Positions 3,886 through 48,423 of a stretch of 64,000 nucleotides of DNA are shown piece after piece (positions within the stretch are counted from its first letter, which is position 1; every line of letters starts with the position of its first letter). The position numbers and the translations under genes were made by a program. The notes under the pieces were generated by a model. That model worked only from the letters and a program-made list of their open reading frames with translations. It ran no database searches and was not told where the DNA came from. Source of the DNA: Patescibacteria group bacterium (GTDB lineage: Bacteria; Patescibacteriota; Minisyncoccia; Phycocordibacterales; DATDWN01); the NCBI GenBank assembly GCA_013816135.1, contig JACDEV010000001.1:28994-92993 (forward strand), in the 5' to 3' direction.

Positions 3886-3914
3886 ATTATTAAATTTACC
3901 TTATATAAAAGAAA

Positions 3915-3939
3915 ACTGCCAACCTCTGGGGTTGGCAGT
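3915..3939 (-). terminator. Terminator hairpin (ACTGCCAACC-TCTGG-GGTTGGCAGT) with T-run on the minus strand
   Basis: 10-bp perfect stem; the minus strand continues TTTTCTTTTAT. Lies between 3961..4437 and 3514..3885. Confidence 0.6.
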
Positions 3940-3960
3940 CCTTTGATGTGACAGTCGTAT

Positions 3961-4437
3961 TTAGAAGGTGCTTGTTGGGTGGATGTCCTCGACCTTACCA
4001 GTCTCGACATTAACCAGCCGAGCTGTCCCCTTGGGAGTGTCGTAACTTTTTTGAATCTGGAATCCATGTTTCTTTCCCCAGATCGTAGGGAATTGGTCGA
4101 TGAATTCCATGTGGGTAGAAAGAATGACGACATCGTGAGTCGACCCATTCTCTTCCAAAAGACGAAAGGTTTCTTCCACTTGCTCGGAATCGAGATTGTA
4201 CCCTCCCGAAAAAAGGCACTCATGTTCTTCGAAGGTAATGCCACCAAGACCAGCTGCAAGAATCACCGAAGTTTCTTTTGCTCGAGTTGCAGTCGAAGAT
4301 AGTAAAGCAATGGATGATTGATGAAGCTGGATGGCCAATGCCGTAGCCAACTCGGCCACTTGTCGCCGTCCTTCAGCCGTTAGGCTCTTTTCAGCGTATT
4401 TACCATGTCGCACAACAATAAGCTTTTTCAATGCCAT
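3961..4437 (-). CDS. Histidine phosphatase family protein (SixA/phosphoglycerate mutase-like)
   Basis: LIVVRHGKYAEKSLTAEGRRQ carries the RHG catalytic motif. 158 aa. GC-richer than flanks. Confidence 0.6.
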   Translation of the reverse strand: MALKKLIVVRHGKYAEKSLTAEGRRQVAELATALAIQLHQSSIALLSSTATRAKETSVILAAGLGGITFEEHECLFSGGYNLDSEQVEETFRLLEENGSTHDVVILSTHMEFIDQFPTIWGKKHGFQIQKSYDTPKGTARLVNVETGKVEDIHPTSTF

Positions 4438-7982: not shown

Positions 7983-8085
7983 AATGATATTATATAAATT
8001 TATTACTTAGAATAAAGGGAATCTTTCCTTACAGGAACGGTACACCTTTTCTGTTTTACTTAGTAAAACTATCAAAGGTCTTCGA

Positions 8086-8146
8086 TTCCCTACGCAGAGT
8101 CTCCCAGACTCTGCTGTCTCCCAATAAAGCTTAAGCTTTATTTTTG
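8086..8146. repeat. Inverted partial copies of the tRNA-Gln 3' end plus nested palindromes
   Basis: The plus strand TTCGATTCCCT...GTCTCCCAG copies the tRNA T-loop/acceptor. CTGTCTCCCA (8114-8123) is the inverse of TGGGAGACAG (8148-8157). A perfect palindrome ATAAAGCTTAAGCTTTAT lies between them. Confidence 0.6.
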
Positions 8147-12829: not shown

Positions 12830-13165
12830 TCTAGAAAAAAAAGCAATAAATAAAATATAAAAAACACCTGCCGTGATGGAAGATGTGTGTGCTTTACTGG
12901 CTCTCGCTCCAAGATGGAGCGAGAGCCAGTATGGAAGGTGCTGCGATCTACACTACTGGTAAAAATTGTATTTTTCCTAGCCCTACGGATTTGTACTTTT
13001 ACATACCTCACCGCAGGGTCGATGAGCAGTTGGGAGCCTCCTTTTGTCCGATTTATTAGGTTCGGACAGGAATTACGCGTAATGTGGACATTGCCTCAAC
13101 AGAGGGATGGCACATCAGGGCGTCTCTTTCTAAGTAGAACCCTATCACAGACCAATAATGTGTCA
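12830..13165 (-). other. Structured non-coding leader/ncRNA candidate between dus and the zinc-ribbon gene
   Basis: About 330 nt without a credible ORF. Contains a 12-bp perfect hairpin GGCTCTCGCTCC-AAGAT-GGAGCGAGAGCC (12899-12927), the palindrome ATTACGCGTAAT, and a minus-strand T6 run about 35 nt after the hairpin. Confidence 0.35.
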
Positions 13166-14208: not shown

Positions 14209-14832
14209 ATGAACAAACCGAAATTAACAGTCTTTGCATCGGGATCTAAAACAGGAGGCGGATCAGGTTTCGAAAACTTGGTTAAAGCTTCTCGTAACGG
14301 AATTCTAGATGCAGAAATACGTGTAGTTTCCAGCCGTGAAAATACAGGTGTTAAAAAGATCGCAGATGAGCTAGGAGTGCCGTTCACATATTCAGCAGGA
14401 CCATGGACCAAAGAGACATATCAAGAACTCGCTAAGGGTTCAGACTTTGTCGCCCTCTCTGGGTGGCTGAAGCTAGTTACTGGTCTTGATCCTCGAACGA
14501 CTTTCAATATCCATCCTGGACCTCTTCCTCGATTTGGTGGCGAGCGCATGTATGGGCATTATGTACACGAAGCCGTAATAGAAGCCTTCAATCGTGGTGA
14601 AATCACACACTCCGCAGTGACAATGCACTTCGTGACTGAGAAATTTGATGAAGGCCCAGTATTCTTTCGGAAAGCCATCGAGATTATCCCCGGCGATACT
14701 GCCGACAGCCTTAGTGCACGAGTTAACACTGTTGAGCATCTATACCAACCGATCGTTACGGATGCAGTTCTGAAGGGCAAAATTTGGTGGGATGGCAAGA
14801 ACCCAGACTCACTACATTCGATCTATATATAG
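14209..14832 (+). CDS. Formyltransferase family protein, phosphoribosylglycinamide formyltransferase (PurN)-like
   Basis: NIHPGPLPRFGGERMYGHYVHEAV and FDEGPV correspond to the formyl-transferase N/H/D motifs; 207 aa. Confidence 0.55.
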   Translation: MNKPKLTVFASGSKTGGGSGFENLVKASRNGILDAEIRVVSSRENTGVKKIADELGVPFTYSAGPWTKETYQELAKGSDFVALSGWLKLVTGLDPRTTFNIHPGPLPRFGGERMYGHYVHEAVIEAFNRGEITHSAVTMHFVTEKFDEGPVFFRKAIEIIPGDTADSLSARVNTVEHLYQPIVTDAVLKGKIWWDGKNPDSLHSIYI

Positions 14833-26563: not shown

Positions 26564-26700
26564 CATATCATGAAGCCGGAGGTGAGAATCTTTCCCTCGA
26601 CTCAAACTCTCGCCGTCGCTCATGTTTGGTCTGGGCACCAACTCGCGTTTTCGTTTTGCTAAACGAAAAATCGCTCCGTTGTTCAAGTCTCTCGCGCGAA
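26564..26700 (+). other. Degenerate tRNA-Leu(CAA)-like pseudo-tRNA with two insertions, convergent with the real tRNA-Leu(CAA)
   Basis: Plus strand GCCGGAG...CGACTCAAA[~37-nt insert]CGCGT[~22-nt hairpin insert TTTTCGTTT-AGCA-AAACGAAAA]CGCTCCGTTGTTCAAGTCTCTC mirrors the acceptor, anticodon arm and T-arm of the adjacent tRNA. The 3' acceptor is not matched. Confidence 0.5.
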
Positions 26701-26723
26701 ACATGTTTCGCTCTCTAGCACAA

Positions 26724-26745
26724 ACCAAAAACCGCTTTCGCGGTT
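26724..26745 (-). terminator. Terminator after tRNA-Leu(CAA) (AAACCGC-GAAA-GCGGTTT + T5 on the minus strand)
   Basis: 7-bp stem and T5 immediately 3' of the tRNA. Confidence 0.6.
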
Positions 26746-26752
26746 TGTTTTG

Positions 26753-28546: not shown

Positions 28547-28604
28547 CAAAAATTACGGAGTAATTTTTTTCTGGGGGATGAGCAGAGCATGGGTATGCTC
28601 TGCG

Positions 28605-28745
28605 TGAAGAATCGAAGCCCGATTGAGATATTTTGTGAGCAATGCGATACAAAATATCCAATTGGGATACTGCTCCTGTAAGGAGAGATTCTTCTATGGA
28701 GACGGCGAGTTTTGAGTCGCGGAAGATTCTTCCATTTTTTGTTAT
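28605..28745. repeat. Patchwork of tRNA-derived fragments: partial tRNA-Tyr 3'-half copy, tRNA-Leu anticodon-arm-like segment and an 11-nt repeat of the tRNA-Trp 3' region
   Basis: 28629-28639 TCGAAGCCCGA equals the tRNA-Tyr variable/T region at 31184-31194. 28706-28717 TTTTGAGTCGCG equals the antisense tRNA-Leu(CAA) anticodon arm. 28727-28737 GATTCTTCCAT equals 28531-28541. A 9-bp hairpin GCAGAGCAT-GGGT-ATGCTCTGC also sits here. Confidence 0.5.
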
Positions 28746-28756
28746 AATTATGTTAT

Positions 28757-29389
28757 ATGAAAATTACTAAACTTGGACACTGTTGTTTATTAGTAGAAAC
28801 TAAAGGAAAAAGAATCCTTACTGATCCAGGTAGTTATACTGTTGAAGCTCATTCTAAATTAGAAAATATTGATTTCATTCTTTTTACGCACGAGCATCAA
28901 GATCATTATCACGTTGATTCTCTAAAATTGATCATTCAAAATAATCCCCATGCAGTTGTTTTTTCTAACAGTTCAGTTAGTGAACTTCTAACTCAAGAAG
29001 GGATTCCACACACTAAAATAAGTCATGATGAAAGTTTTGATCTAGGAGGTATTCCAGTACTAGGTTTGGGAGAAAAGCACGCACAAATGCATAGTTCTAT
29101 TCCAGTTTCTTCAAACCTAGGTTTTTATATAGATAAGAAACTTTGGTATCCGGGGGATGCATTTACAGATCCAGAGAGATCTGTAGAAGTATTAGCTCTT
29201 CCTGTATCTGGACCATGGATGAAAATTGGAGAAGCAATTGATTATGCACTTTTGATTCAACCAAAGAAAGCATTCCCTGTTCATGATGGTACACGATTTG
29301 GTTCTGCGCATGTTCTTCCCGGCAAAGTTCTTCCTCAACATGGAATAGAATTCGTTGTCATGGTTGAAGGTGATACTAAAGAATTTTAA
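28757..29389 (+). CDS. MBL-fold metallo-hydrolase
   Basis: THEHQDHYH has the HxHxDH motif; 210 aa. Confidence 0.65.
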   Translation: MKITKLGHCCLLVETKGKRILTDPGSYTVEAHSKLENIDFILFTHEHQDHYHVDSLKLIIQNNPHAVVFSNSSVSELLTQEGIPHTKISHDESFDLGGIPVLGLGEKHAQMHSSIPVSSNLGFYIDKKLWYPGDAFTDPERSVEVLALPVSGPWMKIGEAIDYALLIQPKKAFPVHDGTRFGSAHVLPGKVLPQHGIEFVVMVEGDTKEF

Positions 29390-30316: not shown

Positions 30317-30346
30317 ATGGGCGTCCAGTATTAGACTGGATCATTT

Positions 30347-31150
30347 AGGAGCGATCTAAGGTCAATATTATTTAAAATAGGTAAAAAAGGAAGACCTAGA
30401 GCTCAAAAACACATATTTCCTTTTACTGGAATAATGACTTGTGGTGAGTGTGGAGCAAGAGTTACAGCTTCAGAAAAAAAGAAGTTGAATAAAACCAGTG
30501 GGAAAATAGAAACTTACGTTTACTATCATTGTACAAAAAGAAAGAAGTATATAGATTGCAAAGCACAACCAGTTACTGTATCTAAGCTTGAAGATGACAT
30601 TGTAAAAACAATAGAAACAAATCTGATTGATCCAGAGTTTTATAAACTAGGTTTAGAGACTTGGAAAGAAGTGCACGAACTGGAAACAGACCAAAGACAG
30701 AAAATATACGAGGCACAATTCAAAAATGTAGAAGAAACAGAAAAGAAATTGGATCGAGCACTTACATTTCTTTTTGATGGAACAGTTACAAAAGAACAAT
30801 ACAACATCCAAAAACAAGAATTAGAAAAATTACTAACAAGAGAAAAAGACAAACTCGCACAAACAGAAAAAAGAGCTACGAACTGGAGAGAACTTACTGA
30901 AAATGTTTTACACTTCTCTGCTTTAGCTGTAGAAGCGCTTAAACATGGAGATGTTCAGGTCCGGAGAGAGACACTGAGTAGTCTAGGTTGGAACCACAGG
31001 ATAGAATCTAAAAAACTGTTTATAAACCTACATTCTTGGTTTACTGTTCTTAAAAAAGGTGAGGAAGAGCTTTTACCAGAAATAAAAGCGTTGGAACTGG
31101 AAAAAATCGTTGATAAGCAAAGACGGATGGAAGCTTTTGCCACCATCCGT
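30347..31150 (+). pseudogene. Large serine recombinase, 5'-truncated remnant (recombinase + Zn-ribbon + coiled-coil part only; resolvase catalytic domain missing)
   Basis: The frame is open from the stop at 30344: ...KKGRPRAQKHIFPFTGIMTCGECGARVTA...YYHCTKRKK...C... is the typical Zn-ribbon_recom motif, followed by a long coiled coil. The annotated ORF (30434..31306) runs on antisense through tRNA-Tyr, which looks spurious. Confidence 0.6.
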
Positions 31151-31159
31151 CCTAGGTTG

Positions 31160-31242
31160 TGCGTCGGGAAGGATTCGAACCTTCGAAGCCCGAAGGCGCC
31201 AGATTTACAGTCTAGTGCGATTGACCACTCCGCCACCGACGC
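31160..31242 (-). tRNA. tRNA-Tyr (anticodon GUA)
   Basis: Acceptor GCGTCGG/CCGACGC, anticodon loop CTGTAAA, long variable arm CGCCTTCGGGCTTC, T-loop TTCGAAT. Confidence 0.85.
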
Positions 31243-31402
31243 ATTCTCGATACTCATTATTCCCTCATCTGCTTTGTTGCTGATTGTGCCCGCTTCCGCA
31301 GAGTAGTTTTCTACACTTTGGTCGCGGTACTCATCAGCGCCTCGCATCTGTGGGAATTCTGTGCTCGAGAAATACTTTAACACATTTTATTTAATTGAGA
31401 AA

Positions 31403-38653: not shown

Positions 38654-38728
38654 GGCCTGGTCGCCAAGTGGTAAGGCAAAGATCTGCAAAATCTTTATAC
38701 GGCGGTTCGATTCCGCCTCAGGCCTCCA
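38654..38728 (+). tRNA. tRNA-Cys (anticodon GCA), CCA encoded
   Basis: Acceptor GGCCTGG/TCAGGCC, anticodon stem-loop AAGAT-CTGCAAA-ATCTT, T-loop TTCGATT. Confidence 0.8.
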
Positions 38729-38745
38729 GGAAAAAAGTGTACTTT

Positions 38746-38829
38746 GCCCGGGTGGCGGAATTGGTATACGCGTTCGACTTAAAATCGAATCTCGAAAGAG
38801 GTATGGGTTCGACTCCCATCCTGGGCACA
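38746..38829 (+). tRNA. tRNA-Leu (anticodon UAA)
   Basis: Acceptor GCCCGGG/CCTGGGC, anticodon loop CTTAAAA, long variable arm, T-loop TTCGACT. Confidence 0.9.
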
Positions 38830-38881
38830 GAAAAACTGTTTTAAATAGTTTTTCGTTTGCTAGAGTTTTAGAAATATATTT

Positions 38882-38956
38882 GCACCCATAACTCAGCTGG
38901 TAGAGTAGCTCCCTCTTAAGGAGAATGTCGTTGGTTCGACTCCAACTGGGTGCACA
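38882..38956 (+). tRNA. tRNA-Lys (anticodon CUU)
   Basis: Acceptor GCACCCA/TGGGTGC, D-loop AGCTGGTA, anticodon loop CTCTTAA, T-loop TTCGACT. Confidence 0.8.
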
Positions 38957-39115
38957 AGTCAAAAAATTCTAAACTGCTTTAGAATTTTTCGGACTTGTGC
39001 AAGCCGGAAGTATGTTTGCGAGTACGCAAACAACTGAGGCGGGGTCGAGGAAATTTCAATTCGACGGAATTGAAATTATCCTTGACCACAAGTGCACGCT
39101 AATGTATTTACATTT

Positions 39116-39199
39116 GGGCAAGTGGCGGAATTGGTATACGCGCTAGTCTTAGGAACTAGTTCCTCACGGATTGGGAGTTCGAGTCTCCCCTTGCCCACA
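39116..39199 (+). tRNA. tRNA-Leu (anticodon UAG)
   Basis: Acceptor GGGCAAG/CTTGCCC, anticodon loop CTTAGGA, long variable arm, T-loop TTCGAGT. Confidence 0.9.
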
Positions 39200-39236
39200 A
39201 TTAAAAAACACCTTTACCGGTGTTTTTTAATTGTGG
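39190..39236. repeat. 23-bp perfect inverted repeat that includes the last 10 nt of tRNA-Leu(UAG) and a terminator core
   Basis: CTTGCCCACAATTAAAAAACACC-TTTACC-GGTGTTTTTTAATTGTGGGCAAG. Confidence 0.7.
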
Positions 39237-39254
39237 GCAAGAGCAAAGCGATGC

Positions 39255-39345
39255 TTTGCGCGGGAGACTCGAACAACGGAGCGACTCTTGTTTTAGCAAA
39301 AACAAGACGCGAGTTGGTGTCCAGACCATAATTTTCTGACGAGAA
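39255..39345 (-). other. Second degenerate tRNA-Leu(CAA)-like element (homolog of 26564..26700), convergent with tRNA-Leu(UAG)
   Basis: Plus strand GCGCGGGAGACTCGAACAACGGAGCGA[CTCTTGTTTT-AGCA-AAAACAAGA]CGCGAGTTGGTGTCCAGACCA[CATAATTTTC-TGACGAG-GAAAATTATG]AGTCGCGG. It is ~80% identical to the reverse complement of 26590-26700, with compensatory changes in the inner hairpin. Confidence 0.5.
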
Positions 39346-39360
39346 AATTATGAGTCGCGG

Positions 39361-39467
39361 ACGAGTCTCATTCAATATCCAAACACGGGTACTGATCCTG
39401 TAAGGATCGAGTCTCCCTCTGAGTTCATGAAAAGTGAGAGTTGTGACCGAGTCTCCCTTTTCCCACC
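39361..39467 (+). repeat. Direct partial copies of the tRNA-Leu(UAG) T-arm/3' end (att-site-like scars)
   Basis: Copies of TCGAGTCTCCC(C)TT.CCCAC at 39405-39425 and 39447-39467, and a truncated copy at 39361-39373. The real tRNA 3' end is at 39180-39199. Confidence 0.55.
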
Positions 39468-39515
39468 TGTTGACACTCTATTTTTACAGTTGTATTATCG
39501 AGCACAGAGGTACAG

Positions 39516-39770
39516 ATGAAAATAATTTTGACGAAAAGAAGTCACGATTGGCATGCTTGCCTTGATGGAAACACCGTCATTTGGGGGTGTGGAGAATCAC
39601 CCAAAGAGGCTATTGGAGACCTGATATACTCGCATCAAGCTATGTTTCCAATCTTGGTCGTCAATCAAGAACAAACATCTGAACCATTTGCTCACAATCG
39701 AGTGGAGCTACCTGGAGGCAAAGTGGTTATGATGACTGACCAGGAGTTTTCTGCAGACTGCAATAGGTAA
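39516..39770 (+). CDS. Hypothetical small protein (GC-richer than flanks)
   Basis: 84-aa ORF followed by repeated terminator element copy 1. Confidence 0.35.
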   Translation: MKIILTKRSHDWHACLDGNTVIWGCGESPKEAIGDLIYSHQAMFPILVVNQEQTSEPFAHNRVELPGGKVVMMTDQEFSADCNR

Positions 39771-39782
39771 AGAAGTAACCAC

Positions 39783-39829
39783 GCCCGCTCGACAGCACTA
39801 CCCGTGCAGTCGCGCGGGTTTTGCTTTGA
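39783..39829 (+). repeat. Repeated terminator element copy 1 (CCCGCTCGACAGCACTACCCGTGCAGTCGCGCGGG + TTTTGCTTT)
   Basis: Nearly identical to 40228-40273. Confidence 0.6.
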
Positions 39830-39942
39830 ATTCCCAAAAATGGAAAATTCTGATCGAGTCTCTTTTTGAATTTCGAGATTATCTCCCCTCCTAATATGCA
39901 AATATAAGTTAATATGTATAATGAAAACAGAAAGGAGCTCTT

Positions 39943-40209
39943 GTGGTTAACAAATCTCAACGAAACGACCCTCGTTTCTGGAAAAAGTGGCACAACGCTG
40001 GTGCTGTCTTCGGGAAAATGACTCGCGAAACCCTTGAGCAAATGTTTAATCGCAAGATTGCTCAGCGTATTGGGGTTTCCATCGAAGAAGTTCGATTAAA
40101 CATGGTCCAGTGCTCATGCTGTTGGACTCCTGAATTCAGAGCTCGAATGAGGAAAGCTATCATAGAGGTTGGGGGTGACCCTAGCTCTGTCCATGATCCT
40201 CTATTCTAA
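39943..40209 (+). CDS. Hypothetical small protein (GC-richer than flanks)
   Basis: 88-aa ORF followed by repeated terminator element copy 2. Confidence 0.35.
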   Translation: MVNKSQRNDPRFWKKWHNAGAVFGKMTRETLEQMFNRKIAQRIGVSIEEVRLNMVQCSCCWTPEFRARMRKAIIEVGGDPSSVHDPLF

Positions 40210-40227
40210 CCCACTCCATAACGACAG

Positions 40228-40273
40228 ACCCGCTCGACAGCACTACCCGTGCATCGCGCGGGTTTTGCTTTAT
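40228..40273 (+). repeat. Repeated terminator element copy 2
   Basis: CCCGCTCGACAGCACTACCCGTGCATCGCGCGGGTTTTGCTTT. It shares a ~43-nt near-identity (one single-base indel) with copy 1. Confidence 0.6.
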
Positions 40274-40708
40274 TTAATTTACCTTCTCCCACCCAATTAC
40301 TGGATGTAGTTCCCACCAACGATGGGCAATATCATATCTAGTTACACCCCATATCTTTATTTTATCTCCTGAAATTGGAAGTGTTAATGGATATTCAGGT
40401 ATTATTTCTGTAACCAGAGTACCTGATTTACTTTTAATATTTATATGTACATCTCCATCTTGAGCAGAAACAACATCTGTTACTGTACCTTCCAAACTTG
40501 CTCGAGGCCCAGCATACAATCCGCTATTTAAAATTCCTATGTCGATTAAAGGATAATTAGCGGTCTCTTTTGCCAACATTTGCCGTCGCATGAAAAAACC
40601 ATAAACAGGTGTTATGAATTGTGGATTATATAAGGTGTAGTTTAGGAAAAAATCAAATGCCACAAAGGCAAAAATAATTAAAAATATTTTAGCGAATTTT
40701 ATTTTCAC
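40274..40708 (-). CDS. Membrane-anchored hypothetical protein (possible OB-fold exported domain)
   Basis: N-terminal TM helix IFLIIFAFVAFDFFL; 144 aa. Confidence 0.35.
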   Translation of the reverse strand: MKIKFAKIFLIIFAFVAFDFFLNYTLYNPQFITPVYGFFMRRQMLAKETANYPLIDIGILNSGLYAGPRASLEGTVTDVVSAQDGDVHINIKSKSGTLVTEIIPEYPLTLPISGDKIKIWGVTRYDIAHRWWELHPVIGWEKVN

Positions 40709-40742
40709 AGATTTATTATATCATTTTTTAAAACTGGGTTGA

Positions 40743-41255
40743 TTGACAATAACCAGCTTGAATAGTATTTTTCACCTAGAGGAGGATGGAATGAGAAAAC
40801 CTATCAAACTCGACATCCTTCAATGGATAAGAGTGCAGAGAAAATATCTACCACCATTACGGCTGGGGGTAATTTCACTTCGAATTGACCGAAGTTGGAC
40901 TGAAATTTCTCAGTATGGAATGAAATATTTGGCGACTGAGTTGATTGTTCGATGGCCAAGGTTCCTAATGATAAGATTAGATTTAGCTAATTATCATGTA
41001 GGAGGTTTCCTTGAGCCACACATCGATCCAACTTTCGAAGAAGTGCGCCAATACAATTCTATATTAGTCCTAAAAAGTCCTGAAGTAGGTGGCGAATTGA
41101 TTTCGGAAAAGTTTGTCTATAACAGTAAGTACTTGAAGATCATCGAGCCAAATAGATATCAGCACGAAGTTACTAAAATCACGCAAGGCGAAAGACTTGT
41201 GTTGAATCTAAGCCTCCGTTTTTCTTTTGAAAAGCTTCCTTCTCCCCCGTTCTGA
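40743..41255 (+). CDS. Possible 2OG-Fe(II) oxygenase superfamily protein
   Basis: HVGGFLEPHIDP and a downstream His fit the HxD...H pattern weakly; 170 aa. Confidence 0.3.
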   Translation: MTITSLNSIFHLEEDGMRKPIKLDILQWIRVQRKYLPPLRLGVISLRIDRSWTEISQYGMKYLATELIVRWPRFLMIRLDLANYHVGGFLEPHIDPTFEEVRQYNSILVLKSPEVGGELISEKFVYNSKYLKIIEPNRYQHEVTKITQGERLVLNLSLRFSFEKLPSPPF

Positions 41256-41359
41256 AAAACCAAGACCGCTCGCCTTAAAAGCCAGCGGTCTTCTTCATGA
41301 GAATTTTAGTATATATATGTTATAAAAAATAAAGAATTGTTCCATTTTTAGGAGGTTGT

Positions 41360-42151
41360 GTGAACAGGATTTACATGTTTTTGATGGTAATTGCAACTGT
41401 TTTGCTTTGGTCTTGTGGCACAGGAAGTAATCCAGTAGAACCAAGCAGGGAAAGTGATGTAATCTTTTCAGATGGTTTCAGTACTTACAGTAATGGATTA
41501 ATTACCAATGAATTTGCATATTGGAATCCAAACAATCCAAATGCAAAACATTCGATTATTTGGGAACTTACAAGTGGCTCACTTTTTGCTCAAAATGGTG
41601 AAGGATGGACTGGAATTCCTGACAATATAGGTCCTAATGCATTGTCTACAAACGGAACGAACTCTGCTGTCTTTCGTCTAACTACAAAAAGAAGTGACTT
41701 CAGAGATGTTTCTGTAAGTTTTTCTTTGCTCAATCAAAACTTAGTAGAAACCTCCATAACTCCACAGAGTAGTGTAGACGGCGTTCATTTCTTTCTACGC
41801 TACCAAAGTGAGGAAAATCTTTATTACGCCAGTATAAATCGAAGAGATAATACGGCAGTGATAAAGAAAAAAATCCCGGGTGGAATCTCAAATGGTGGAA
41901 CCTATTACGAGTTGAGTTCTTACGTAAGTCACACGGTTCCGTATGGAAGTTGGCAAAATGTAACCTCAACAATAAAGAACAACACTGACGGATCAGTATC
42001 AATTGAACTTTATTCTGAAGGCCAACTGGTAGTCCAAGCTAATGATAAAGGGAATGTAGGAGGACCACCAATACTAAACGCAGGAAAGTTGGGTATTAGG
42101 GGTGACAACGCAAACCTAAAGTTCAAGAACTTTGTTGTAAAGTCATTCTAA
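41360..42151 (+). CDS. Secreted lipoprotein with a LamG/concanavalin-like jelly-roll domain (DUF1080-like)
   Basis: Lipobox LLWSCG; the C-terminus GKLGIRGDNANLKFKNFVVK resembles the DUF1080 C-terminus. Confidence 0.35.
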   Translation: MNRIYMFLMVIATVLLWSCGTGSNPVEPSRESDVIFSDGFSTYSNGLITNEFAYWNPNNPNAKHSIIWELTSGSLFAQNGEGWTGIPDNIGPNALSTNGTNSAVFRLTTKRSDFRDVSVSFSLLNQNLVETSITPQSSVDGVHFFLRYQSEENLYYASINRRDNTAVIKKKIPGGISNGGTYYELSSYVSHTVPYGSWQNVTSTIKNNTDGSVSIELYSEGQLVVQANDKGNVGGPPILNAGKLGIRGDNANLKFKNFVVKSF

Positions 42152-42226
42152 CTTTTAAAAGGCTGGTAACAGCCTTTTGCTTTTATCCATTTGCCACATT
42201 AACCAACCACTAGTATTCTTAATAAT

Positions 42227-43219
42227 ATGCAAACATATAAAGATACGCTTAGCTGGCAGGCGCTTGGAAGAATAGTGATTACAGCTGCTTTGGTGTTACT
42301 AGCTTGGAAATCAGTTGAAGCTATTGTCCTAATTCTAATCTCACTTGTTCTGAGTGTGGCTATGTACCCTATTGTGGAAAAATTTCATAAAAAAATGCCA
42401 CTCCTACCAGCTACTATCTTGGTGCTATTACTTTTACTTATTCCTCTTATAGGACTCATCGTATATATAGTAATGAATCTAACTTCTCAATTTCCACAAA
42501 TAGTAGAAGCTGTAAATTCTATACTCCACAGTTCTCGATTTCTTTCTAGTTTAACTGGAAATATAGATATCTCAACTTATCTGCAAAATTATTCTGGATT
42601 ACTTCTGAGCTCAACAAAAAATATTGCTATAACAGCCACGGAAGTTTTGACTGTCTTTTTTCTTTCATTCTACCTTATATACGACTACAAAATCCTTTTT
42701 AATTTATTTTTAAATTTCTTTTCTAATGATGAAAAGAAAAAAGTGACTGAAGTCTTGTCCGAAGTTGCTAGAGTAACGGGCTTATATGTCAGAGGAAATG
42801 TTTTGATATCAATTATTTCCGGAGTAGTTATTTATATTGGCTTACTTTTGCTTCATATTCCTTTTGCTCTTCCACTTGCCTTATTTACTGCAGTACTTGA
42901 TCTTCTCCCTTTGGTTGGACCTACAATAGGAAGTTTGCCAGCTATTCTTATCGGTTTTGCGATATCTCCATTTCAAGGATTTTTAGTAATTATCCTATAT
43001 TTTACTTATCAGCAACTGGAGAATGTCTTTATCAGTCCTGTAATATATAATCAGGCATTAAATCTTTCTCCTGCATTAACCTTCCTTGCAGTGGTAATAG
43101 GTGGCACAGTATTCGGTATCATTGGTGCACTTTTTGCTTTACCTGTTGCGGCGAGCATTCCTGTCTTAATGAAATATAAGGAAGAGTATACGCAAAGGCA
43201 TCAAGAAGTTTCTAATTAA
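42227..43219 (+). CDS. AI-2E family transporter (UPF0118/PerM-like)
   Basis: Multi-TM protein of ~330 aa with the characteristic N- and C-terminal helix bundles. Confidence 0.6.
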   Translation: MQTYKDTLSWQALGRIVITAALVLLAWKSVEAIVLILISLVLSVAMYPIVEKFHKKMPLLPATILVLLLLLIPLIGLIVYIVMNLTSQFPQIVEAVNSILHSSRFLSSLTGNIDISTYLQNYSGLLLSSTKNIAITATEVLTVFFLSFYLIYDYKILFNLFLNFFSNDEKKKVTEVLSEVARVTGLYVRGNVLISIISGVVIYIGLLLLHIPFALPLALFTAVLDLLPLVGPTIGSLPAILIGFAISPFQGFLVIILYFTYQQLENVFISPVIYNQALNLSPALTFLAVVIGGTVFGIIGALFALPVAASIPVLMKYKEEYTQRHQEVSN

Positions 43220-43224
43220 TAAAA

Positions 43225-43800
43225 ATGACAAACTCAGAACAAGATGGAGAGCAGATATTTTTGCTCGAAGCTTTGCGCAAATTCAAACAAATTGGTTCCA
43301 TACTTCCTAGCAGTAAATATCTTGGAAAAAGTATGGCTAAGTTTGTTTCAGGAAAAGAAGGATTTGTAGTTGTGGAGCTTGGCGCAGGTACTGGAGTAAT
43401 CACAAAAGAAATTCTAAAAAAACTTTCTAAAACTGGAAGGCTTATTGCTTTTGAGAACAACAAAGATCTCGCTGAATACCTCCGACAAAACATAATGGAC
43501 CCAAGACTAATAGTTTTGGAAAAAAATGTCTTGTCTATGAAAAAATATCTTAACGATCTTGGGTATAGCAAAGTGGATTGTATTATTTCCGGACTACCAC
43601 TAGGAACTATAAAAAAATCTGATAGAACGAAGATACTAGAAACTATACAAAAACTACTAAAGAAAGATGGAGCTTACATCCAATTTCAATATTTTCTTTC
43701 TTCCCTTTCTATGATAAAAAAACACTTTAGCCGGACAAAGATAAAGAATTATGAGCTTCGAAATTTTCCACCAGCTTTTGTCTATGAGTGCAAGAAATAG
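43225..43800 (+). CDS. Class I SAM-dependent methyltransferase
   Basis: Motif I VVELGAGTGVITKEIL; 191 aa. Confidence 0.6.
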   Translation: MTNSEQDGEQIFLLEALRKFKQIGSILPSSKYLGKSMAKFVSGKEGFVVVELGAGTGVITKEILKKLSKTGRLIAFENNKDLAEYLRQNIMDPRLIVLEKNVLSMKKYLNDLGYSKVDCIISGLPLGTIKKSDRTKILETIQKLLKKDGAYIQFQYFLSSLSMIKKHFSRTKIKNYELRNFPPAFVYECKK

Positions 43801-43904
43801 CATTGACTTTTTCACTTTTTTATGATACTAATTTGGGCAGAGCTGAAGTTTGCCAAGAGGTAAACAGCATACGTTCATTGACGTTTCTAGATGTTAAAAG
43901 GAAA

Positions 43905-45086
43905 AGTATGAAAGAATTTGAAAGAGGTTTTGCACTAATAGTATTAGTACTATTAGGCTCCGTCTGGTATTCAATGGGATTTCTGGGGGTACTGGTAATC
44001 TTGGTTCTTATTTCCGGTTTAATTGCTTCTTGTGTCTTTGCTGCGTGGCAAATGGCAAAAGCAGACATTCTATTCACATTTATCGGCATCGGTGAAATCA
44101 AAATGGTGGATAGAGGTGTCGGCAACTTCTGGAAGATTTTGGCTAATTTGCCAGGTCATCATGTTGAAGGCGAAAAAATCGTTGAAGATAGTAAAGAAGA
44201 ACATACAAAAAGTTATCTGGAAAAACGTTATGGTCTTTACTTTATCGGCTTCTCGCCGGCAAAGCTTCATGAATTTGAGTTTGTTCATGAAAGGATCAAT
44301 CCGGACATCAAAAAAGGTATGCCTCCAGACGAGTGGATCAAAAGGGATGATCATGCACAGAAAACCACCACTCTGCTCTGGGAGATTCCACATTGGTATT
44401 TGGTCTCCGGGGTAGAATTCCATGATCAAATGAGTGGTGAACTACTCTTCAATTGCATGTCACGAGTCACTAGACCTGTAGTTGCTATCTACCTTCGTAG
44501 AGGGCAATTCATCGACTATTCTGCACAATATGTAAACGGTGCAGTAATTGATTCTGTAAGAAATGAGAATTTTTCTGATCTTCAAGGTCTCCAGAAAATG
44601 GAGAGTGCAATTAAGGAAGAAGGAGGGAAAACACCTCTTTCAGAGGAAATTGTATCGAAGGTCAACGTGCTTCTTGAAGACGCTGTTGGTCTGAAGATGC
44701 AATGGGGATTTATTTCCCAGTACGATGCATCTGATAAGTCTGACCAGAAAGCGCTTGAAGCTAGAAAGGTAGCTCAATTAGAGGGTGAAGCTAAGATTGA
44801 GACAGCTAAGCAAGCTGTTGCAATCTCTAAGCAAACCGCAAAACAAACCAACATTGAAGCGAAAGCTCAGCTTAAAGCTGACGAGATCAAGTCTAAGGGA
44901 CAAATGTCAGGGCTAGAAGCTGCACTCAACATCATCAAGGAAAGATTCCCAGATATTGACCCATCAGAAGCTCTACAAAGAGCAACTGAACTTGCAGTCG
45001 CAACAAAAATGTCTCACCCACAATCTCCAGTAACAGTACTGGGAGCAAGTGTGAGTATTGGTGTTAAAACTGCGGAGAAAAAGTAA
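43905..45086 (+). CDS. SPFH/band-7 (flotillin/stomatin-like) membrane protein
   Basis: N-terminal TM helices, SPFH-like FIGIGEIKMVDRGVGNFWKILANLPGHHV, and a C-terminal Ala/Lys/Glu/Gln-rich coiled coil. The start was taken at the internal Met to avoid overlap with the methyltransferase. Confidence 0.4.
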   Translation, partial: SMKEFERGFALIVLVLLGSVWYSMGFLGVLVILVLISGLIASCVFAAWQMAKADILFTFIGIGEIKMVDRGVGNFWKILANLPGHHVEGEKIVEDSKEEHTKSYLEKRYGLYFIGFSPAKLHEFEFVHERINPDIKKGMPPDEWIKRDDHAQKTTTLLWEIPHWYLVSGVEFHDQMSGELLFNCMSRVTRPVVAIYLRRGQFIDYSAQYVNGAVIDSVRNENFSDLQGLQKMESAIKEEGGKTPLSEEIVSKVNVLLEDAVGLKMQWGFISQYDASDKSDQKALEARKVAQLEGEAKIETAKQAVAISKQTAKQTNIEAKAQLKADEIKSKGQMSGLEAALNIIKERFPDIDPSEALQRATELAVATKMSHPQSPVTVLGASVSIGVKTAEKK

Positions 45087-45844
45087 TGTTTAAATACATT
45101 GCTGGAACTATTTTTGGGTTAATCATCATTGCTGTATGTGTTGGTCTATGGGCTAAATCACTAAATCCATCACTTCCTCCGGACTCACTTGAGGATTCAC
45201 CTGAAGCTATTAAGTGGAGACAAAAGTACTGGAAAAAACATGATTGGATACCGATTCTTGTCTTTCTACTCATGTTGCATGCAATGGCCTGGATGACTTG
45301 GCCCAATTCTTGGATGTCGATTTGGCAAGAGAGCGGTAAATTTTCTCTAACCAAAACAATAATGATCCTAGCTTTCCACGCTTTTGCGATCATTTTCTTC
45401 GACATACTACCAGAAAAAAAAGACAGTCCATGGAAATACCTCGTTGCAAGGATAGGTGTGGGACTCTGCTTTATCGGATTTTTGATAGTAATCGGGGCTC
45501 TTCCGTGGTTTGGTGAAAAATACTGGGAAGAGAAGGAGAAGGCTGAAATGGTAAGGGTTGCTTTAACTGAGGCGATTCGTATCGAACAGCAAAAACCTTT
45601 TGAAGTAACCGCTCCTGCTTATTATATCTTGAGTGAAAGAATCCTGACTCCAGAATATACAGAAGTAACTACTTCAGGTCCGATTTACGTCGTTACTGAC
45701 AGGGGTGACTGGATAGAGTATGAAAACAACCTAACTGAAAAGACTATTCTTCCTTACTACACTGCTGGAATGAGATTCACATCTAGAACGTTTGAAAATG
45801 AAGGAGAACATAAAAATGTTACGGTCATTGTAAAAAGACCCTAA
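45086..45844 (+). CDS. Multi-TM membrane protein with a soluble C-terminal domain (possible NfeD-like partner of the SPFH protein)
   Basis: 252 aa; start overlaps the stop of the SPFH gene. Confidence 0.35.
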   Translation: MFKYIAGTIFGLIIIAVCVGLWAKSLNPSLPPDSLEDSPEAIKWRQKYWKKHDWIPILVFLLMLHAMAWMTWPNSWMSIWQESGKFSLTKTIMILAFHAFAIIFFDILPEKKDSPWKYLVARIGVGLCFIGFLIVIGALPWFGEKYWEEKEKAEMVRVALTEAIRIEQQKPFEVTAPAYYILSERILTPEYTEVTTSGPIYVVTDRGDWIEYENNLTEKTILPYYTAGMRFTSRTFENEGEHKNVTVIVKRP

Positions 45845-45850
45845 CTACTA

Positions 45851-45893
45851 TGAAAAACCGCGCTTATCCCTAAAGATGAGCGCGGTTTTCACT
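45851..45893. terminator. Bidirectional terminator (AAAACCGCGCT-loop-AGCGCGGTTTT)
   Basis: 11-bp perfect stem between convergent operons. Confidence 0.7.
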
Positions 45894-45908
45894 TTTGTTT
45901 ATTTTTGA

Positions 45909-46208
45909 TTATAAATTCAAATATTGCTGAGAAATTGGTTCATCGTTTAAATTAATACCAAACGAATACAGAACAAATTTTATAAGACCATATACAGAAA
46001 ACATCACAAACATGCCAACTAATCCCCATAAAATTGCATCTTGAGCTTGTTTTCTATCCTTATCACCAGCTTCAAGAGAAAGATATTTTACTATTCCCCA
46101 TGTAAAGTAAGCAAAAGCTAGAGCAAATGCCAAAAGAATTAAAGGGTTCAGAATCAATTTATTGACCTTATTTAAGAAAGGTACAATAGTAATTGAATTC
46201 GATGGCAT
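45909..46208 (-). CDS. Small two-helix membrane protein, VirB2/TrbC pilin-like paralog 1
   Basis: ...FAYFTWGIVKYLSLEAGDKDRKQAQDAILWGLVGMFVMFSVYGL. Confidence 0.4.
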   Translation of the reverse strand: MPSNSITIVPFLNKVNKLILNPLILLAFALAFAYFTWGIVKYLSLEAGDKDRKQAQDAILWGLVGMFVMFSVYGLIKFVLYSFGINLNDEPISQQYLNL

Positions 46209-46226
46209 ATATAAAAACTTAAATTA

Positions 46227-46574
46227 TTATAGACCTGGAACTGTAGGAAGTGGAACTGCAGTAACTGTGCTGATTCCTAATGCATTCTGAAGCCAAATAA
46301 CCAAACCATAAACAGAGACCATAACAGCAATAGCTATGACACCATAGATCATATGACTCTTTCCTTGTTCCTGAGCCTTTGGATCACCTGCACCTCGTAA
46401 GAACTGGATAACTCCCCAAAAGAAGAAGATTATGGCAAGAGCAAACATAATTGGAATGATCTTTGCAATGATCTGACCAATTGCAGTAACTAGTTGTGAA
46501 AGACCACTAAGGTTTCCCTGAGCAAATGCGAATGCTGGAGAGAAAGCCATGACTGCGTAAATAACTTTTTTCAT
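46227..46574 (-). CDS. Small two-helix membrane protein with Sec signal peptide, VirB2/TrbC pilin-like paralog 2
   Basis: Signal peptide ...AFAFA|QG; IFFFWGVIQFLRGAGDPKAQEQGKSHMIYGVIAIAVMVSVYGL. Confidence 0.4.
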   Translation of the reverse strand: MKKVIYAVMAFSPAFAFAQGNLSGLSQLVTAIGQIIAKIIPIMFALAIIFFFWGVIQFLRGAGDPKAQEQGKSHMIYGVIAIAVMVSVYGLVIWLQNALGISTVTAVPLPTVPGL

Positions 46575-46657
46575 ATTAAATTTTACTTATTGATATTATG
46601 TGTAATGACTTAATTCTACTATAAAAACGTTGGAAAACAAGGCTACTGTGGATAGCT

Positions 46658-47134
46658 TTAACAAGGATTTGCAGCAAAAGGATCTTCACCAGAAGTGCAG
46701 TGTCCAGGAGTTTGATATATACCACTTGAACCGCCAACTGTTCCAGTGAAGTTAGGAACAGTTGTATGACTCTCTAATGTAGTTCCACCTGCTCCAGCCC
46801 CTATTCCACTTGGTTTTATCCCAAGAGCATTTCCAATAAAGGAAATTATTCCCATTATGGAAATAATAACAAAGAGAGCAACCACTCCCCAAATCATTTT
46901 CTGTTTACCCTCATCTCGAGTTTTTGAATCTCCTGCATGTAAAATGAATTGTCCAACTCCCCAGAAGAAATACAGAAATGCCAAACCTATTATGACAGGT
47001 TCTGTAAGGTGTAATATTTGTCTAATATCCAAAAGCAAACCTTTAATCCCATCGAGTGCTGCAAAAGAAACAACTGGAAATAAAACCAACACTGACAATA
47101 TTGCAAATGATATTTTATTTATATTTTTTTTCAT
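46658..47134 (-). CDS. VirB2/TrbC pilin-like paralog 3 (with a Gly/Thr-rich C-terminal extension)
   Basis: Signal peptide ...VSFA|AL; LYFFWGVGQFILHAGDSKTRDEGKQKMIWGVVALFVIISIMGI. Confidence 0.4.
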   Translation of the reverse strand: MKKNINKISFAILSVLVLFPVVSFAALDGIKGLLLDIRQILHLTEPVIIGLAFLYFFWGVGQFILHAGDSKTRDEGKQKMIWGVVALFVIISIMGIISFIGNALGIKPSGIGAGAGGTTLESHTTVPNFTGTVGGSSGIYQTPGHCTSGEDPFAANPC

Positions 47135-47139
47135 AATTA

Positions 47140-47547
47140 TTATTTATTAGGATACCCTACTTTACTACTATATTCCGGCGTTAAAACATCAGTCCTGAGA
47201 AGTACTCCATTTGGATCAGAGCCACCTGCAAAAAACTCACCCGCAGCAAGTCCAACCAATATACGATAGGTTACCATAATAAAAAGTGCTAACACTCCCC
47301 AGATCATATATTGTTTTCCTTTTGCTATTTCCTCAGGTTTACTGGAGCTAAGGATGAACTTGGAAAGACCCCAGAAGAAAACAAGTGATGCAAGGATTTC
47401 TAATATAGGAATAAGGGTATTAACAATTTCAGTAGCATATTGAACTATAGTCTGGAAATTAGATCCTGCTAGATCGAAATCTGCTCCGAAAACAATAGTA
47501 GGTACATATAATAAAGTCAGAAGGAAAATAATTTTCAAAGTTTTCAT
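47140..47547 (-). CDS. VirB2/TrbC pilin-like paralog 4
   Basis: LVFFWGLSKFILSSSKPEEIAKGKQYMIWGVLALFIMVTYRIL. Confidence 0.4.
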   Translation of the reverse strand: MKTLKIIFLLTLLYVPTIVFGADFDLAGSNFQTIVQYATEIVNTLIPILEILASLVFFWGLSKFILSSSKPEEIAKGKQYMIWGVLALFIMVTYRILVGLAAGEFFAGGSDPNGVLLRTDVLTPEYSSKVGYPNK

Positions 47548-47548
47548 G

Positions 47549-47938
47549 TTAAGTAGTTAATGCCGTTACTGTATTCTCAACAACCTGTGCAATCCCTGCG
47601 GCACCCAGCAATATACCAGCACCAATCAAAGCCCAGAGTAATCGTTGTTTAGCTATCTTGATTTCCTTGGGGTTACCTTGAGCTAAGACAAAACTGAAAC
47701 CTGCCCAGATAATCCAAACAACCACAATTACAGACGCTACAGGCATAATTATATTTTTAAGTATAGTTTTCAATAAAGCTGGAAGTGAATCACCTGCTTT
47801 TTTTGCTGGATTATCAATTCTTATATCATATGTTTGGGGAGGATTTACAAGCGGAGCTGATGGGACAGATGCACTAATGAAAAAAGGAACGGAGAGTAGA
47901 AACAAAAACATCAAAAGAAAACTTTTTTGTATTTTCAT
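47549..47938 (-). CDS. VirB2/TrbC pilin-like paralog 5
   Basis: IIWAGFSFVLAQGNPKEIKIAKQRLLWALIGAGILLGAAGI. Confidence 0.4.
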   Translation of the reverse strand: MKIQKSFLLMFLFLLSVPFFISASVPSAPLVNPPQTYDIRIDNPAKKAGDSLPALLKTILKNIIMPVASVIVVVWIIWAGFSFVLAQGNPKEIKIAKQRLLWALIGAGILLGAAGIAQVVENTVTALTT

Positions 47939-47943
47939 AAAAA

Positions 47944-48423
47944 TTATTTAAAAAATATTACAGGTTTATCTAGCAAAGAATTTGTTATCAAAGTGACAAT
48001 AAGCCATGCAGCCAATATAAATCCCATTCCTATTAACACTTTTACCAACATAGCATTAATCTTGGTTCTTTCACTAGGATTAGAGCCATTTATCATGTAC
48101 TTAAATCCTGCCCAAGCTAATATAACCACGCAAAACATCAATGCAAACTTCGATCCCCAAGCAACGATATCTACTGTTGCCGCAACCAAGTCCTTGAGAC
48201 CACAATTACCATACACTGCTGTGTCTCCAGAACCTTGAATGCATTCATAGGTTATACCCGTATTAGTATTTTTTCTGACCGGCTCATTGACTGGATTAGA
48301 GGATGGATTAACAAGGGGAGCATCTGTTGCGTAAATTACGACAGGTAGAACTAATAAGCAACAGAATAAAATAAGTATTGGTAAGAATAAAAATTTGTTT
48401 TTTATATTATTTGAAAATCTCAT
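47944..48423 (-). CDS. VirB2/TrbC pilin-like paralog 6 (Cys-containing N-terminal extension)
   Basis: ILAWAGFKYMINGSNPSERTKINAMLVKVLIGMGFILAAWLIV. Confidence 0.4.
   Translation of the reverse strand: MRFSNNIKNKFLFLPILILFCCLLVLPVVIYATDAPLVNPSSNPVNEPVRKNTNTGITYECIQGSGDTAVYGNCGLKDLVAATVDIVAWGSKFALMFCVVILAWAGFKYMINGSNPSERTKINAMLVKVLIGMGFILAAWLIVTLITNSLLDKPVIFFK

Follow-up and report, generated by a model that had tools for sequence, protein, structure and literature searches.

Folded non-coding elements with inverted and direct copies of tRNA 3' ends behind tRNA-Leu(UAG) and other tRNA genes of a Zambryskibacteria-like genome

The 64-kb stretch of DNA analyzed here (the window, to which all unlabelled coordinates refer) comes from a Zambryskibacteria-like genome of the candidate phyla radiation (CPR), whose IF2 has homologues of 63-74% identity in Zambryskibacteria/Paceibacterota genome bins. 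Directly behind its tRNA-Leu(UAG) gene (39116-39198, + strand) lie several partial copies of the 3' end of this tRNA, and these copies belong, as arms, to small non-coding elements that fold strongly, hereafter mirror units. A mirror unit is 130-270 nt long, starts at the base after the tRNA discriminator, and is made up of a terminator (A-run, hairpin, T-run), an inverted copy of the last ~20 nt of the tRNA, a conserved core of two hairpins and a direct copy of those ~20 nt. The units mark sites where short cassettes and lineage-specific genes accumulate behind many CPR tRNAs. A sequence-only reading of the window had noticed direct repeats of the tRNA end and ascribed them to old, decayed, integrase-borne islands. 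Its observations are largely confirmed, apart from a claim about GC content and some annotations, and its interpretation is partly supported. The decayed islands themselves fit poorly, as the repeats are arms of structured elements that occur clade-wide and also behind tRNAs without islands.

Anatomy and distribution of the mirror units

Eight tRNA genes are present in the window, and tRNA-Leu(UAG) is the last of a conserved Cys-Leu(UAA)-Lys-Leu(UAG) cluster (38654-39198) that directly follows IF2 and RbfA. The gene is called by ARAGORN and by Rfam (59.6 bits) and does not encode the CCA end. The IF2-RbfA-tRNA cluster is conserved in relatives, which were compared as loci of ~10 kb on each side of IF2 (labelled L0xx). 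Across the tRNA end the sequence-only reading had described a perfect 23-bp inverted repeat, and a repeat search recovers it exactly (39190-39212 / 39219-39241, with a loop of 6 nt). It forms a bidirectional terminator hairpin of A-run, stem and T-run (39190-39241), a layout also present across the tRNA end in relatives, and its outer 9-10 bp consist of the tRNA acceptor 3' strand and an inverted copy of it (39232-39241). This inverted acceptor strand had gone unnoticed, as had an inverted copy of T stem and T loop, perfect over 13 nt (39262-39274, + strand; GGGAGACTCGAAC), which is complementary at 13/13 positions to 39177-39189. The two parts make up the inverted tRNA 3' end; the hairpin between them, of 20 nt and termed H1 (39242-39261, + strand), fills the gap exactly and is conserved in position and variable in sequence. 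The same make-up characterizes the inverted arm in general: acceptor 3' strand, inserted H1, then T stem and T loop.

The inverted arm is followed by a core of the kind designated type 2 (39275-39361, + strand), comprising ACGGAGCG, a hairpin, CGCGAG..., a hairpin with a GACG loop and GAGTCGCGGA (nhmmer match 39266-39368, E 1e-17). Direct copy 1 (39362-39373, + strand), which holds only the 3' part of the T loop and T stem (CGAGTCTC), forms the 3' end of this complete type-2 unit. Beyond it lies a 5'-truncated type-1 unit (39374-39421, + strand) with the 3' half of the long hairpin, GTACTG and the TGTAA-loop hairpin, ending in direct copy 2 (39408-39421); it is homologous to sequence in L005/L008 and gives a partial nhmmer match (39373-39413) to model positions 46-85 of 86. 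A 5'-truncated fragment of type 2b, a variant of type 2, follows (39417-39467, + strand; 89% repeat match), and is homologous to a unit in L014. At its end is direct copy 3 (39448-39467), which includes the acceptor strand and matches the tRNA 3' end best of all. These three direct copies were all reported from the sequence alone; the third had been put at 18/20 identity to the real tRNA end and measures 17 of 19-20. A fourth, weak direct copy at 39852-39872 had been missed. The motif CGAGTCTCYC occurs four times in the 64 kb against 0.17 expected, a count reached in 0/100 shuffles, and the interval 39199-39470 folds far more stably than shuffled sequence on both strands (z = -9.2 and -8.9). 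The whole locus reads, in order, as a complete type-2 unit, two 5'-truncated units, two cassettes, ~3.5 kb of lineage-specific genes and an SPFH-like gene pair.

Behind tRNA-Leu(UAG) the same layout is found in L003, L005-L008, L015, L017, L020, L032, L033, L036 and L038. The direct copy in relatives is often perfect (23 nt in L036, 19 nt in L014), and after it comes the -35 box of a promoter that drives a different small open reading frame (ORF) in each genome. The inverted copy tracks the tRNA: with a T stem of GAGGG/CCCTC, as in L006 and L015, it has the sequence GAGGGACTCGAA, and in L017 it is AGAGGACTCGAAG. An inverted T arm (at least 10/12 nt) lies downstream of 38 of 138 tRNAs in the sequences examined, compared with 1.2% when non-cognate arms are used. 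Units in the window follow five tRNAs. Besides that of Leu(UAG), these are a type-1 unit behind tRNA-Gln (8014-8145, - strand), a type-2 unit behind tRNA-Leu(CAA) (26575-26751, - strand) whose arms copy the unusual TTCAAGT T loop of that tRNA, a type-1 unit (match E 1e-19) with a type-2 3' fragment behind tRNA-Trp (28548-28736, + strand), and a degenerate type-2b unit behind tRNA-Lys (38956-39097, + strand). The last has an inverted acceptor strand and two hairpins, with a terminator that includes the tRNA end (38951-39001), and is orthologous to spacers in L003, L008 and L033. In relatives, other units stand behind Trp, Tyr, Lys, Leu(UAA) and Leu(CAA) tRNAs.

The core types are few and are common to units of different tRNAs. 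Type 1 consists of a long AT-rich hairpin, GTACTG and a 5-bp hairpin with a TGTAA loop, and type 2 has the composition given above. In the sequences examined nhmmer returned 35 type-1 and 29 type-2 matches, with none in the more distant loci L023, L024 and L026. A long variant of type 1, in which ~110 extra nt (two more hairpins) are placed between the long and the TGTAA hairpins, is seen in L006 (12583-12830), L004 (~4000-4182) and L018 (~3900-4114). Against Rfam 15 only tRNAs exceed the gathering threshold, and at E <= 10 the only further matches are chance ones of miRNA hairpins to the terminator. No description of mirror units was found in the literature, where only a paper on tycheposons (discussed below) proved relevant; judging by Rfam and the literature that could be searched, the family is apparently undescribed. 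Repeats of this kind could pass for att sites when islands are called. The intervals between copies might also suggest a CRISPR-like array, a candidate that was rejected as they are fragments of homologous units and not spacers.

A covarying fold on the tRNA-sense strand

What is it that is conserved in these units? RNAalifold applied to 22 type-1 units yields H1, an arm helix, a long hairpin in two parts and a short hairpin, with 92.5% of cells paired. Compensatory changes are present at 28/36 pairs, and at 7/8 pairs of H1 alone. Double-change cells number 173, compared with 57 +/- 6 after shuffling (0/500 reach 173) and 17-30 with the partners slid. In the first hairpin of type 2, 12/14 pairs show compensatory changes. 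On the tRNA-sense strand G.U pairs exceed A.C mismatches (34 vs 14, p = 0.0055), and the conserved entity is therefore a single-stranded fold, of RNA or DNA, rather than a double-stranded DNA palindrome.

On this strand the inverted and direct copies are predicted to pair with each other and so close a fold with a three-way junction. The outer 12 bp of the paired arms match both strands of the tRNA acceptor/T-stem helix, H1 occupies the place of the tRNA body and the core that of the T loop. Pairing between the inverted and the direct acceptor strand is seen in about half of the units and is weakened at the third copy in the window (CTTTTCCC). The likeness to the top half of a tRNA follows from the sequence itself; that it would also serve a function is something we infer. 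ARAGORN and the Rfam tRNA model call no tRNA or T arm inside the units. With a predicted closing helix of acceptor plus T stem that would end at the discriminator, the units would resemble the tRNA-like domain of transfer-messenger RNA, the t-elements of plant mitochondria and viral tRNA-like structures. Unlike these, they have no T loop or T arm (the loop bases are predicted to be paired), and the putative mimicry is specific to the neighbouring tRNA. Two other structural candidates were set aside. A hammerhead-like three-way junction is at odds with the order and sequence of the junction strands, and Rfam is silent; for a primer-binding site of retroviral type, the complement of CCA is missing before the inverted acceptor strand.

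The fold bears on two explanations in which the units do not move. In the first, the repeats are by-products of replication: template switching (quasi-palindrome correction) would have lengthened terminator hairpins until they reached into the tRNA end, and local slippage would have multiplied the T-arm motif. The 23-bp repeat across the tRNA end is indeed perfect, and inverted copies that track the tRNA sequence are what gene conversion would give. Such processes would, however, leave unexplained the shared cores with their conserved loops, a hairpin at a fixed junction, a direct copy 120-250 nt away, the G.U asymmetry and the clean filled and empty sites described below, and the covariation extends beyond the arms. 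We consider this explanation very improbable.

In the second, the units are host-encoded structured RNAs of tRNA transcription units that mimic the tRNA top half, are inherited vertically and have their arms kept matched by selection or gene conversion. Such RNAs would be read by enzymes that act on tRNA ends (RNase P/Z, CCA-adding enzyme), or would serve as a read-through insulator or processing signal before the next promoter. The strength of the covariation and the G.U excess on the tRNA-sense strand favour this, together with the conserved bases of loops and junction (GTACTG and the TGTAA and GACG loops). The unit ends fall on discriminator positions, one in the tRNA and one in the pseudo-end, the orientation relative to the tRNA is always the same, and orthologous units are kept across ~30% divergence of the IF2 protein, all of which would suit a host RNA. 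Yet a T-run terminator separates tRNA and unit, no promoter of the unit's own is visible, and neither ARAGORN nor Rfam sees anything tRNA-like. Many orthologous tRNAs have no unit, in L014 a unit with its terminator is inserted between tRNAs that are otherwise adjacent, and the arrays of truncated copies and the turnover of types look selfish. On balance a host RNA appears rather unlikely, though far from negligible; if the units are RNAs, they represent a new class of tRNA mimic attached to many tRNA genes.

Probable insertion at tRNA ends and candidate recombinases

Comparison of close loci provides filled and empty sites. In L011 the gene for tRNA-Leu(CAG) begins 8 nt after that for tRNA-Leu(UAG), whereas in its close relative L014 a 146-nt unit with its own terminator lies between the two, flanked by a perfect 19-nt direct repeat (CGAGTCTCCCCTCACCCAC); this is the unit homologous to the type-2b fragment of the window. 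L029/L039 and L031 have no unit behind an identical tRNA. Orthologous tRNAs bear units of different types in different genomes, and the window has its complete type-2 unit nearest the tRNA, with the 5'-truncated type-1 unit (the commonest type at this position in relatives) and the type-2b fragment distal to it. Across all loci, 10 or more fragments retain the 3' end of a unit with its copy of a tRNA end, and there are no true 5'-only fragments. Gene cassettes are found between tRNA and unit in L003 and L009.

Filled and empty sites, differing types at orthologous tRNAs and truncated distal copies thus argue for repeated insertion at the tRNA end. The reading towards which we lean, with somewhat more confidence than doubt, is that small non-autonomous elements matching their target have inserted repeatedly at the tRNA end, with cassettes and lineage-specific genes accumulating behind them. 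Serial insertion had been proposed from the sequence alone, and it accords with a complete proximal element, truncated distal ones and then cassettes that end in tRNA-end-like copies. The newest insertion would lie next to the tRNA, and each would remake a tRNA-end-like 3' boundary. Targeting could proceed through the tRNA-end sequence, by recombination or by priming, with the inverted copy of the element matching the target, and the mobilizing enzyme would act in trans; large serine recombinases located at tRNA 3' ends are candidates. If the units are mobile, ~20 nt of complementarity to tRNA ends would amount to a targeting mechanism.

Several observations weigh against such insertion. No recombinase, transposase or reverse transcriptase is present at the Leu(UAG) locus, and in the 64-kb window phmmer searches with XerC, XerD, Cre and lambda Int queries gave no tyrosine recombinase at E <= 10. 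No free or viral copy of a unit was found: scans of viral contigs with the tRNA end, module A and both core types gave 0, 0, 1 and 0 matches, and the single match, which falls within a phage structural gene, was dismissed as due to chance. The ends of the serine-recombinase elements described below (the L002 and L014 types), tried as relatives of the units, share no sequence with them, so that the link is circumstantial. Since the arms match each tRNA, a mobile element must re-template both of them from the target, and we know of no mechanism that does so. Orthologous units (those of Trp in the window, L001, L007 and L013) are alignable at only ~70% IF2 identity, which resembles purifying selection and could reflect a host function. 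Finally, no recent insertion was caught among relatives as distant as these.

A bolder version of the insertion reading is offered tentatively, as possible rather than probable: that mirror units are a new class, either elements that home to tRNA ends or RNAs that mimic the tRNA top half, with specificity residing in nucleic acid, arms re-templated at each insertion, and a role as landing pads for one-gene cassettes in CPR genomes otherwise without classical mobile elements. Re-templating at each insertion is suggested by the 3'-anchored, 5'-truncated copies.

Known mobile systems provide partial parallels. Like miniature inverted-repeat transposable elements (MITEs), REPINs and att-only elements mobilized in cis, the units are small, multi-copy, hairpinned and intergenic, with terminal inverted complementarity and filled and empty sites. 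Unlike MITEs and REPINs, their arms differ from copy to copy, matching the tRNA that they follow, and no RAYT or DDE transposase or autonomous partner was found. With integron attC sites and the attP of CTX phage they have in common folded imperfect palindromes with bulges that recreate a double-stranded, target-like site, one-gene cassettes and strand asymmetry, but they mimic a tRNA end and not an attI or dif core, and there is no IntI in the window. Integron cassettes are promoterless and end in attC; those described here have their own promoter and intrinsic terminators, a comparison made with no dedicated attC model run. The guide tetranucleotides of IS200/IS605 and the bridge RNA of IS110 are analogous only in that a target-complementary segment borne by the element could set the insertion site; the units differ in having ~20 nt of complementarity and both inverted and direct copies, with no TnpA or IS110 recombinase present.

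Integrases of the phiC31/Bxb1 type are the enzymes that do occur nearby: complete genes abut tRNA 3' ends in relatives, and one is truncated in the window, with none at Leu(UAG). Large serine recombinases abut tRNA ends in L002, L014 and the more distant CPR loci L043-L046, and those of L002 (at tRNA-Leu(UAG)) and L014 (at tRNA-Tyr) are complete, with Resolvase, Recombinase and Zn_ribbon_recom domains. In L002 a perfect 116-nt inverted repeat (13032-13147 / 14616-14731) brackets the recombinase and starts in the last 4 nt of tRNA-Leu(UAG). The inner ends of these repeats are acceptor-strand-like (GTGGGCAA / TTGCCCAC), and the repeats may bound an invertible segment or be long terminal repeats.

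The L014-type recombinase element is ~1.8 kb long and occurs in L014 (2438-4207), L043, L044/L045 and L046/L047 (recombinase at 3001-4470/4971), with 80-85% identical DNA and 86-88% identical protein across distant CPR lineages. More than 7000 homologues of the enzyme exist; the best 120 are 80-92% identical, and the named sources among them are Wolfe-, Moran-, Kuenen-, Doudna- and Yanofskybacteria. In the four contexts examined (Leu-UAA, Val, Tyr) the gene converges on a tRNA gene, and the two 3' ends overlap or abut. Inverted repeats of 70-100 nt bracket the gene in three of the four (L014, L044/L045 and L046/L047); in L043 no flanking inverted repeats were found and two inverted tRNA-Leu(UAA) genes flank the recombinase. 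No paper on this element was found. The truncated recombinase of the window (30335-31303, + strand) retains only Zn_ribbon_recom and a C-terminal coiled coil, the catalytic domain being missing, and its frame continues into tRNA-Tyr (31159-31242, - strand), a convergent gene that it enters at the 3' end. Taken with a lineage-specific MBL-fold hydrolase (28757-29389) and a 213-aa ORF found otherwise only in L002, it looks like a second small tRNA-bounded islet.

The hotspot behind tRNA-Leu(UAG)

CPR genomes are tiny and their gene gain is little understood, and the interval between tRNA-Leu(UAG) and the SPFH-like pair provides a concrete, recurrent hotspot. In relatives it ranges from 0.1 kb (L029/L039, L011) to ~5 kb (L005, L008) and its hypervariable content is mostly unrelated genes. 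The flanks are conserved, with the IF2-RbfA-tRNA cluster on one side and the SPFH pair, a pilin block and SBP on the other. The integration hotspot suspected from the sequence is thus borne out, as at least 10 relatives have 0.1-5 kb of unrelated sequence between conserved flanks; it is a true hotspot at genus-to-family depth, of a kind that is ordinary in itself. Synteny with relatives breaks off at 39198, the tRNA end, and resumes at the SPFH-like pair (43788) or the pilin block (45909). From the break at the tRNA and the syntenic position of the SPFH pair, a lineage-specific insert of ~39199-43790 can be delimited. It had been drawn as far as 45900, but its right edge lies at ~43790 and the SPFH pair (43788-45844) belongs to the ancestral flank. 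ORFs of the window between 39516 and 43800 have no tblastn counterpart in 28 related loci, which span only the surroundings of IF2, so that these genes may occur elsewhere in the same genomes; the small T4SS-pilin-like genes from 45909 onwards do match.

The composition of the insert does not set it apart. Its GC content is 0.378 compared with 0.375 for the window, and, measured against 45 core ORFs, the codon-usage z scores of its genes range from -1.3 to +0.6. The GC and codon check that had been suggested thus leaves insert and core indistinguishable, contrary to the claim of a GC-richer accessory run. The insert matches the core except for its two small ORFs, of which the one scored (39516-39770) has a GC content of 0.44; the only further GC-richer parts are the non-coding units and a terminator spacer (40210-40273; 0.58).

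Could the copies nonetheless be attL/attR scars from a succession of large islands or prophages, each with its own integrase, for which the tRNA 3' end was the attB and of which only the repeats and some cargo genes are left? Direct repeats spanning the T loop to the tRNA end are what tRNA-targeting integrases leave at their sites, lineage-specific content and the hotspot would be explained, and integrase remnants exist elsewhere in the window, at tRNA-Tyr. There is also a precedent in the tycheposons of Prochlorococcus, which insert at tRNA genes, have direct repeats of partial tRNAs and leave cargo-only remnants (bioRxiv 10.1101/2020.12.28.424599), so that their islands contain scattered partial tRNAs. 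As with tycheposons, insertion here would be at tRNA genes, the repeats are partial tRNAs, newer elements would push older ones outward and island positions are conserved. The mirror units differ, however, in being 130-270 nt long and non-coding, with an extra inverted copy of the tRNA end, a covarying fold and no compositional signal, and the tyrosine or serine recombinase and the replication module that are hallmarks of tycheposons were not found at the Leu(UAG) locus.

As a tRNA island, the insert starts at the tRNA 3' end and is present or absent among relatives with conserved flanks, but it has no distal direct repeat, no integrase or remnant inside and no deviant composition. No copy of the tRNA end lies near the distal boundary, whether this is set at 43.8 or 45.9 kb. 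That no integrase remains had been noted correctly: the ORFs of 39.5-45.9 kb contain no recombinase domain (Pfam, PHROGs), and phmmer with a large serine recombinase query likewise gave no match there. The 40-270-nt intervals between copies are conserved, structured and non-coding and recur at other tRNAs and in other genomes, which is not random decay; the inverted copy would go unexplained, and units occur at tRNAs without islands. Strand exchange by large serine recombinases takes place at a 2-bp core and leaves no direct repeats of 20 nt. These enzymes are the only integrases seen here, and decayed islands of this sort seem improbable as the source of the copies.

The part of the insert nearest the tRNA consists of two cassettes. 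Cassette 1 (39470-39872, + strand) has a sigma-70-like promoter (39470-39498, 11/12), an 84-aa ORFan (39516-39770), a compound GC-rich terminator (39784-39827) and a type-2b-like 3' fragment that contains the weak direct copy 4. Cassette 2 (39873-40293, + strand) comprises a promoter, an 88-aa ORF (39943-40209), a terminator (40229-40271) and a pseudo-acceptor end, CCTTCTCCCACC (40282-40293). The two terminators are the duplicated element seen in the sequence-only reading, with 97.7% identity over 44 nt. The small ORF right after the last tRNA-end copy differs in every relative, and the 84-aa ORF, followed up as a possible tracer of cassette mobility, has no homologue among 5.8 billion proteins; it occurs only in two assemblies that represent one population and carry the identical locus. 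A related compound GC-rich terminator (CGCCCGC...ACCCGTGCA...GCGGGTTTTGCTTT) closes unrelated small-ORF cassettes across genomes, in L017 (~13838), L037 (~2688; L033/L037 islets), L003 (~4513 and ~5141), L006 (~13013) and L015 (~12541, - strand).

The remaining lineage-specific genes (40274-43800) encode a membrane protein of 144 aa on the minus strand, a 2OG-Fe(II)-like protein of 170 aa, a LamG/DUF1080-like lipoprotein of 263 aa, an AI-2E transporter of 330 aa and a class-I methyltransferase of 191 aa. Pfam bears out the earlier calls of the transporter (E 6e-45) and the methyltransferase, and gives only sub-threshold matches for the 2OG-oxygenase-like and LamG-like proteins. At the right-hand flank, a 432-aa SPFH-like protein and its 252-aa membrane partner (43788-45844, + strand) have homologues in L014 and L011 by blastp (29-30% identity, E 1e-20 to 5e-22). 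The pair is fast-evolving and syntenic, just before the pilin block in most relatives. The SPFH assignment stands at the level of the family, with Band_7 in 7/8 members, but the copy in the window has no Band_7 match, and the NfeD-like label given to the partner is unsupported. Next to it, six small membrane proteins with T4SS_pilin/TrbC Pfam matches (45909-48423, - strand) are kept in relatives and form the right-hand core flank.

Some further features of the tRNA clusters deserve mention. Contigs end inside or just after the cluster in L001, L004, L007, L010, L012, L013, L016, L018, L019, L021 and L030, which fits breakage of assemblies by multi-copy mirror units or by strain heterogeneity; the repeats of the units probably explain why contigs of CPR genome bins break so often at tRNA clusters. 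Single tRNA genes of conserved clusters are flipped in some genomes: tRNA-Lys in L005, L017, L034 and L038 relative to the window and other loci, Trp and Leu(CAA) in L001-L020, and Cys-Leu(UAA) in L044. This suggests inversion between inverted copies of tRNA ends, or inversion catalyzed by a recombinase. Spacers of tRNA clusters also contain ORFs of homing-endonuclease type, one in L008 (12046-12657; HNH by Pfam) and one in L023 (13590-14237), which is LAGLIDADG-like by motif alone.

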